Assembly (NCBI RefSeq): GCF_045037415.1
Contig: NZ_CP173438.1
Direction: 5' to 3' (one strand)
From: Escherichia coli
Lineage (GTDB): Bacteria > Pseudomonadota > Gammaproteobacteria > Enterobacterales > Enterobacteriaceae
DNA length: 64,000 bases
In this document: positions 29,592 to 29,614 of the stretch, one piece after another
How the letters are laid out: each line of letters begins with the position of its first letter
How positions within the stretch are numbered: position 1 is the first letter of the stretch
Notes under the pieces: generated by a model
Databases searched by the model: none
What the model was told of the DNA's origin: nothing
What the model saw: the letters and a program-made list of their open reading frames with translations, nothing else
Program-made: the position numbers and the translations under genes

Positions 29592-29614
29592 CCCCTCTGC
29601 ATGATGCAGAGGGG
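29592..29614. repeat. perfect 11-bp-arm palindrome in araF-araG intercistronic region
   Basis: CCCCTCTGCAT-G-ATGCAGAGGGG. Confidence 0.6.

Follow-up and report, generated by a model that had tools for sequence, protein, structure and literature searches.

A conserved intercistronic hairpin between araF and araG of Escherichia coli that probably protects the araF message from 3'-to-5' decay

The perfect palindrome located between the araF and araG genes of E. coli (positions 29592-29614 of the window, by which we mean the whole stretch of 64,000 nucleotides analyzed here) probably serves as a barrier to 3'-to-5' decay that lets the araF mRNA accumulate over that of araGH, as judged by analogy to other operons. 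The element possesses the structural features of an intercistronic decay barrier: it is a stem placed after a stop codon within a polycistronic RNA, it is not a terminator of its operon, and it is conserved. The block to exonucleases and the araF to araGH mRNA ratio that would result from it are what we infer from this architecture. ABC importers need their binding proteins in excess over the membrane complex, and intercistronic hairpins that stabilize the binding-protein segment of an mRNA have been a textbook mechanism since the 1980s. Horazdovsky and Hogg are said to have observed in 1987 a minor full-length araFGH mRNA next to an abundant araF-only mRNA that ends in the spacer. This very dyad was reportedly noted in 1987 by Scripture et al. 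and by Horazdovsky and Hogg (J Mol Biol 197:27-46). Its significance beyond annotation is small, and the only mildly new points are its dual-strand behavior in Escherichia and the series of hairpin and REP replacements across genera.

The palindrome, its RNA hairpin and the flanking genes

The araF gene (28587-29576, + strand), which encodes the periplasmic L-arabinose-binding protein of 329 amino acids, is present in the open reading frame list and has the same coordinates in the RefSeq annotation of five strains. It is followed by araG for the ATP-binding subunit of 504 amino acids (29646-31160, + strand) and araH for the membrane subunit (31175-32161, + strand), both of which are found in the reading frame list and in RefSeq. 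The three genes are consecutive in the annotation, and a consensus scan found no promoter-like site between araF and araG. The mechanically derived araF reading frame opens 17 codons upstream of the annotated start (28536-28586); the annotated start at 28587 marks the beginning of the signal peptide MHKFTKALAAIGLAAVMSQSAMA. At the other end of the gene cluster, a terminator-like hairpin with 11 pairs and a weak T-run (32199-32226, + strand) lies 38 nt past araH and before otsB, and is a possible end of the araFGH operon.

The segment 29592-29614 reads CCCCTCTGCAT-G-ATGCAGAGGGG and is a perfect palindrome of 23 bases with a single central base. An inverted-repeat search returned its two arms (29592-29602 and 29604-29614) as 11 nt each, 100% complementary and separated by 1 nt, and detected no second inverted repeat in the region 29300-29900. 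The palindrome as such has no strand, and RNA of either strand folds into the same hairpin. In the folded sense RNA the central A-U pair is open, which leaves a 10-bp Watson-Crick stem with a UGA loop; a wobble pair between U29591 and G29615 closes the stem and extends it from 10 to 11 bp. The complete sense stem-loop thus spans 29591-29615 (+ strand) and has 11 bp, counting the closing U-G pair, and a 3-nt loop. Its folding energy of -19.8 kcal/mol compares to a mean of -7.7 +/- 2.4 kcal/mol for shuffled sequences (z -5.1), and none of the 200 shuffles equaled it, while the fold of the reverse strand yielded an antisense hairpin of -19.7 kcal/mol (z -4.9). Sequence, arms and folding energy agree with the strong stem-loop that the original prediction had read from the palindrome.

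The hairpin begins 15 nt past the araF stop codon (29574-29576) and ends 31 nt ahead of the araG AUG at 29646. The 15 nt that separate the araF stop from the hairpin (29577-29591, + strand) contain an A-tract, AAAAA (29585-29589); seen from the minus strand, this is a U-tract that follows the hairpin. In the 64-kb window, there are five perfect inverted repeats with arms of at least 11 nt and loops of at most 10 nt, the palindrome counted, compared to 0.35 expected from first-order Markov simulations of the window. This excess, along with the conservation within and between species reported below, led us to reject the notion that the palindrome arose by chance. When arms of at least 9 nt were considered, the window contained 13 perfect inverted repeats as compared to 3.25 expected; other repeats with arms of 10-12 nt are located at 5296-5319, 10534-10557, 26135-26167, 26657-26680, 36699-36724 and 49981-50006. 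The element carries no annotation in RefSeq, and a scan of the region 28000-32500 gave no Rfam match over 29577-29645 with E-values up to 10. RNase III requires about two helical turns. We considered an RNase III site and rejected it because the stem has only 11 bp.

To define the beginning of araG, gene starts were compared with the RefSeq annotation of K-12, EDL933 and three other strains; in all of them the araG start corresponds to window position 29646. A Shine-Dalgarno sequence, GGAG (29637-29640, + strand), precedes this AUG by 5 nt; it lies outside the hairpin, and the ribosome-binding site of araG thus stays free of the stem. The upper part of the stem contains two in-frame ATGs (29601 and 29604), neither of which is preceded by a Shine-Dalgarno site. 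Among the 81 genomes of our comparison, a Shine-Dalgarno-like motif is present ahead of the annotated araG ATG in 75, an ATG equivalent to that at 29601 is restricted to E. coli and its closest relatives, and the lengths of the araF-araG spacer represent all three residues modulo 3. Furthermore, many genera have in-frame stop codons 6-14 codons upstream of the real araG start. We therefore rejected a start at 29601, given its location in the stem, its lack of a Shine-Dalgarno site, the poor conservation of the ATG and the in-frame stops before the real start. The RefSeq annotation, the Shine-Dalgarno sequence and the comparative distribution of stop codons bear out the true araG start at 29646 that had been proposed from the sequence of this region. 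The original prediction would have been refuted by an araG start at 29601 or by a lack of conservation of the element; the start lies elsewhere, and the element is conserved.

Conservation of the hairpin and the strand under selection

The window is a piece of E. coli chromosome. Of 5426 complete E. coli genomes, 5416 contain a match to a query of 401 bases around the palindrome, at loci annotated as araF and araG. The 69-nt araF-araG spacer, which occurs in a median of one place per E. coli genome, is 100% identical in 4772 of these 5416 genomes; an identity of at least 99% across the surrounding 401 nt is found in just 1393 genomes. The comparison with K-12 that had been suggested for this element showed it to be identical there. 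The commonest variant of the spacer, C29597T, is of the O157:H7 type and is represented by 298 complete genomes (L002). It changes a C-G pair to U-G, through which the sense hairpin is kept (-17.2 kcal/mol) and the antisense hairpin is weakened by an A-C mismatch (-13.3 kcal/mol). In one E. coli genome (NZ_AP022171.1), the match begins only at base 136 of the query (window 29535), beside a gene for a glycerophosphodiester phosphodiesterase, and this partial match suggests that araF was broken within its 3' end by a rearrangement. Plasmids carry two copies of the araF-araG region.

For the comparison between species, an AraF scan with one genome per species provided 80 loci from Escherichia, Enterobacter, Citrobacter, Leclercia, Klebsiella, Raoultella, Kosakonia, Buttiauxella, Cedecea, Pantoea and others. 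A strong hairpin is present in the araF-araG spacer of each of the 85 loci inspected, 80 of which are from other species, with best single-hairpin energies ranging from -13.6 to -32.8 kcal/mol and spacer lengths ranging from 53 to 152 nt. Our perfect-stem finder overlooks interrupted stems, and about 20 species scored poorly with it, yet RNAfold gives strong hairpins for them. The position of the hairpin is kept across 81 genomes, with a median of 14 nt after the stop codon and 33 nt before the AUG. Its sequence varies from genus to genus, with 78 distinct core sequences among the 81 genomes; the stems read CCCCTCTGC/GCAGAGGGG in Escherichia, GCCCCTCAC/GTGAGGGGC in Enterobacter, GCCCCCCGG in Leclercia and GCCTCCCGC/GCGGGAGGC in Raoultella, and the loop length varies from 3 to 9 nt.

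An alignment with plain MAFFT and RNAalifold recovered only four outer pairs, with the 3' arms of Escherichia and Enterobacter misaligned by one base, and was replaced by a re-alignment of 54 spacers with a covariance model built from 41 sequences. In the latter alignment 92.3% of the cells pair, as compared to 45-64% in controls with a slid 3' partner; since five Escherichia rows are one base out of register, the value of 92.3% is an underestimate. Compensatory changes are found at nine of the nine modelled pairs. Double-change cells number 88, compared to 25.6 +/- 5.6 in shuffled alignments, and none of 500 shuffles reached 88, although these covariation statistics are inflated by the fitting of the alignment to the structure and by the phylogenetic relatedness of the sequences. 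These data demonstrate that Enterobacteriaceae and Erwiniaceae have retained the position and the pairing of the hairpin, and not its sequence.

In eight species, a REP-type sequence (GCCGGAT.../...ATCCGGC) takes the place of the unique hairpin, and nine of the 13 matches to the REP-core motif across the 80 loci lie within the araF-araG spacer. The eight loci with REP-type spacers are L022, L051, L054, L015, L016, L019, L036 and L050; REP-like sequences are also listed for the spacers of L043, L059, L064, L068 and L076. One or two REP/BIME-type palindromes fill the spacer in Citrobacter koseri, C. amalonaticus, C. gillenii and their relatives. Long spacers of 110-152 nt with other REP-like palindromes (GGTGGATGGCGC...) are found in Buttiauxella, Cedecea and one Enterobacter-labelled isolate (L068). 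The E. coli element itself is not of this kind: we rejected its assignment as a REP/BIME because it has no REP core (GCCGGATG...CATCCGGC) and occurs in a median of one place per genome. The sole match to the REP-core motif in the 64-kb window is at 32621, with none at the palindrome. The series as a whole, in which unrelated hairpins or REP elements fill one slot in 80 species, offers a clean illustration of selection on RNA structure over sequence.

The spacer alignment also bears on the strand that is under selection. Folding is more stable for the sense spacer RNA than for the reverse complement in 67 of 81 genomes (Wilcoxon p 5e-7; mean difference -2.2 kcal/mol), a gap that may partly reflect the G+U richness of coding-strand spacers. 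Among the paired positions there are 29 G-U wobbles versus 11 A-C combinations, and 9 of these 11 A-C combinations stem from the mis-registered Escherichia rows. Because the sense folds are more stable and G-U outnumbers A-C, the comparison of the sequences points to selection on the sense RNA, rather than on the DNA or on an antisense transcript. The perfect 11-bp dyad symmetry present in E. coli could be read as a cruciform or as an operator to which a dimeric regulator binds; however, it is the complementarity that is conserved between genera and not the sequence, the half-site spacing varies with the loop length from 3 to 9 nt, the tolerated G-U pairs amount to mismatches in DNA, and no regulator site is annotated at the palindrome. 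Such a DNA-level element is almost certainly not what is conserved here, and we rejected an operator on the grounds of the covariation and the variable loop length.

A decay barrier in the sense transcript

The stem of the sense RNA is followed by GUGUGAAC, with two U in 8 nt and no U-tract. Across the 81 genomes, the median number of T in the 8 nt past the stem is two; at least five T are present in one genome, and at least four in six genomes. The consensus scan called no terminator on the + strand at the palindrome. Because there is neither a sense U-run nor a terminator call on the + strand, the element is not an intrinsic terminator on the sense strand within its own operon.

We propose the following sequence of events for the action of the hairpin as a decay barrier. 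The araFGH genes would be transcribed as one RNA, and in the absence of a sense-strand U-run, RNA polymerase would mostly pass the hairpin. Decay of the distal araGH segment would be initiated by endonuclease cuts, after which exonucleases (PNPase, RNase II) would proceed in the 3' to 5' direction and stall at the base of the hairpin. A long-lived araF-only mRNA would remain, and because of it, the periplasmic binding protein would be present in excess over the membrane and ATPase subunits. The mRNA-stabilizing role that had been envisaged for the stem-loop fits the comparative data, namely the covariation, the lack of a sense U-run and the REP elements found in the same slot of some genera.

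The scheme is also in keeping with published expression data and with a general rule for ABC operons. In a microarray study with O157:H7, araF was up 10.45-fold and 6.01-fold, and araG was not significant and up 2.16-fold, respectively (PMC8489885 Table 1), a difference between araF and araG that could also stem from partial termination or from probe effects. Among five E. coli ABC operons, it is always the cistron of the substrate-binding subunit that is stabilized, and in most cases a 3' structure protects it (PMC5927463). The araFGH operon is absent from the set of 47 decay-regulated operons of Dar and Sorek (PMC5927463), probably because it is unexpressed without arabinose. Likewise, no sense-strand 3' end at the hairpin is listed in Term-seq data gathered without arabinose, that is, with the operon uninduced (PMC7815308).

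The closest known system is that of the REP stem-loops between malE and malF in the maltose operon of E. coli, a proven stabilizer (Newbury, Smith and Higgins, Cell 1987; summarised in PMC5927463). Both malE-malF and araF-araG belong to ABC importer operons in which the gene for the binding protein comes first and a stable stem-loop is placed right after it, and the proposed outcome is alike as well, with more mRNA for the binding protein than for the membrane components. The likeness extends to several enterobacterial genera that hold a REP-type element in the araF-araG spacer. Unlike the malE-malF REP, the E. coli araF hairpin is single-copy, has a short perfect stem of 11 bp and lacks the GCCGGATG...CATCCGGC core, and its stabilizing effect is a putative one. 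The structures described by Dar and Sorek (PLoS Genet 2018, PMC5927463) are similar in that they are stable hairpins at the 3' boundary of the stabilized cistron, and they are conserved between E. coli, Salmonella and Enterobacter (PMC5927463); many of them are located within coding sequence (PMC5927463), whereas the araF hairpin is intergenic. A further relative is the 'mRNA decay terminator' of the Rhodobacter capsulatus puf operon (Chen, Beatty, Cohen and Belasco 1988; cited in PMC5927463). This hairpin is intercistronic like that of araF, blocks 3'-to-5' decay and sets the stoichiometry of the operon products. Compared to the araF hairpin, the puf structure is larger and comes from another organism and operon; it is required for stability without being sufficient for it.

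An abundant araF-only mRNA would likewise be seen on a Northern blot if the hairpin were a partial terminator on the sense strand, at which some polymerases stop so that araGH is transcribed less and decay is uninvolved. The position and the strength of the hairpin would suit this explanation, and in a few genera a short T-run does follow it, for instance GCGCTCGCCTTTTTGG in Atlantibacter (L028), with at least four T in 6 of the 81 genomes. However, the E. coli stem is followed by GUGUGAAC with its two U in 8 nt, at least five T are reached in only one of the 81 genomes, the consensus scan has no terminator on the + strand, and the REP elements that occupy the same place in other genera are not terminators. 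We consider partial termination unlikely as the main role.

The hairpin might instead serve araGH, either by protecting the 5' end of this segment after an RNase E cut in the A-rich spacer or by tuning the initiation of araG translation. Just upstream of the stem there is an AU-rich stretch, AAAAAUU, that is single-stranded; structures that shield 5' ends once RNase E has cut are documented for other operons (PMC5927463), and the minimum-energy fold contains a weak second hairpin over the araG Shine-Dalgarno site. The A-rich stretch is unconserved outside Escherichia, though, and the Shine-Dalgarno site lies 22 nt past the stem and is unpaired with it. The expected stoichiometry and the microarray data have araF higher, not araGH, and the REP elements in the same place are known as 3' protectors. 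A role of the hairpin on behalf of araGH is accordingly very improbable in our estimation, and a decay barrier on behalf of araF remains the probable one.

Antisense transcripts at the palindrome

The stem-loop reading of the original prediction was sound with regard to the sense hairpin, and overlooked RNA 3' ends that are found on the opposite strand. On the minus strand, the hairpin with its AAUUUUUC tail (29584-29614) is terminator-like in the consensus scan and coincides with a Term-seq 3' end. The hairpin is followed there by AAUUUUUCC, which contains UUUUU. In the Term-seq tables of Adams et al. 2021, an RNA that is antisense to araF has its 3' end at MG1655 1985131 (+) (PMC7815308 Supplementary file 1). 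This position corresponds to window position 29584 on the minus strand, 8 nt past the stem and at the C after the U5 tract; the sequence listed for it ends with ...CCCCTCTGCATCATGCAGAGGGGAATTTTTC (PMC7815308). The number of reads at 1985131 was 1565 in LB at an OD of 0.4, 1137 in LB at an OD of 2.0, and 1414 in M63 glucose (PMC7815308). Hence the features by which an intrinsic terminator is recognized, a GC-rich hairpin, a U-tract and an RNA 3' end, are found together on the antisense strand. The mapped antisense end shows that the stem can define a stable RNA 3' end in vivo, and that such palindromes can act on both strands.

A Rho-dependent region with a Rho score of 5.25 is reported 323 nt further on, at MG1655 1985454 (+) (PMC7815308), which corresponds to about window position 29261 on the minus strand and is antisense to araF. 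The antisense coverage upstream and downstream of 1985454 was 50 and 9 reads, respectively, without bicyclomycin, and 128 and 121 reads with it (PMC7815308). Inside araF, Rho halts the antisense RNA that has gone past the palindrome. The antisense RNA that runs through araG and has its 3' end at the palindrome is weak, and the end at 29584 may result from intrinsic termination or, equally, from a Rho-terminated RNA that was trimmed back to the hairpin. With its GC-rich stem, its U5 tract and a 3' end 8 nt past the stem, the minus strand resembles intrinsic or bidirectional terminators; the sense strand of the araF hairpin, in contrast, is without a U-tract. Read-through of the antisense RNA under Rho inhibition suggests weak termination or a trimmed end.

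The A-tract that provides the U-tract of the antisense RNA is found only in Escherichia and one Citrobacter group, and is absent in Enterobacter, Leclercia, Klebsiella and the rest. Because of this confinement of the A-tract, the antisense role is, by sequence comparison, lineage-specific and secondary. One could still suppose that the main role of the element is an antisense one, in that it ends, or sets the 3' end of, transcription out of araG and shields araF from antisense RNA and colliding polymerases. The minus-strand hairpin (-19.7 kcal/mol, z -4.9) followed by AAUUUUUCC would be in keeping with such a role, as would the Term-seq 3' end located exactly there in three growth conditions of MG1655 (PMC7815308) and the further antisense 3' end in araG at window position 30550. 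However, Enterobacter, Leclercia and Klebsiella keep the hairpin without the U-tract that is limited to Escherichia and the one Citrobacter group, the sense fold is the more stable one in 67 of the 81 genomes, and the O157 variant weakens the antisense hairpin only. The RNA in question is also weak, with about 1100-1600 Term-seq reads, and coverage continues past the hairpin under Rho inhibition (128 to 121 reads). We judge an antisense main role to be distinctly improbable.

A combination of the two activities can be envisaged for Escherichia, where the palindrome with its A-tract would be two-faced, protecting the araF mRNA on one strand and stopping, on the other, an antisense transcript begun inside araG. 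We consider this quite doubtful. If true, antisense RNA and converging polymerases would depress araGH and never enter araF, and this would add a second, transcriptional layer to the difference in expression between araF and araGH.

The second antisense 3' end in the Term-seq data is listed at MG1655 1984165 (+) from M63 glucose (PMC7815308). It corresponds to about window position 30550 on the minus strand, inside araG, within a feature at 30546-30582. About 130 nt upstream of the latter site there is a sigma-70-like site (30706-30678, minus strand) with TTGTCG and AATAAT separated by a 17-nt spacer; the antisense RNA with its 3' end at the palindrome may originate there.

Two further inverted repeats of the window are akin to bidirectional terminators or coincide with RNA ends. 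The sequence AAAAAACCTGCTCCGGCAGGTTTTTT at 26847-26872 forms a perfect 11-bp palindrome between A6 and T6 and resembles a bidirectional intrinsic terminator. Positions 27257-27285, directly past the 3' terminus of the minus-strand gene ftnB (27289-27792), hold a perfect inverted repeat of 10 bp, TCATCGGCGC...GCGCCGATGA, and Adams et al. list a strong 3' end with 22904 reads at this repeat on the strand opposite to ftnB (MG1655 1987429, minus).
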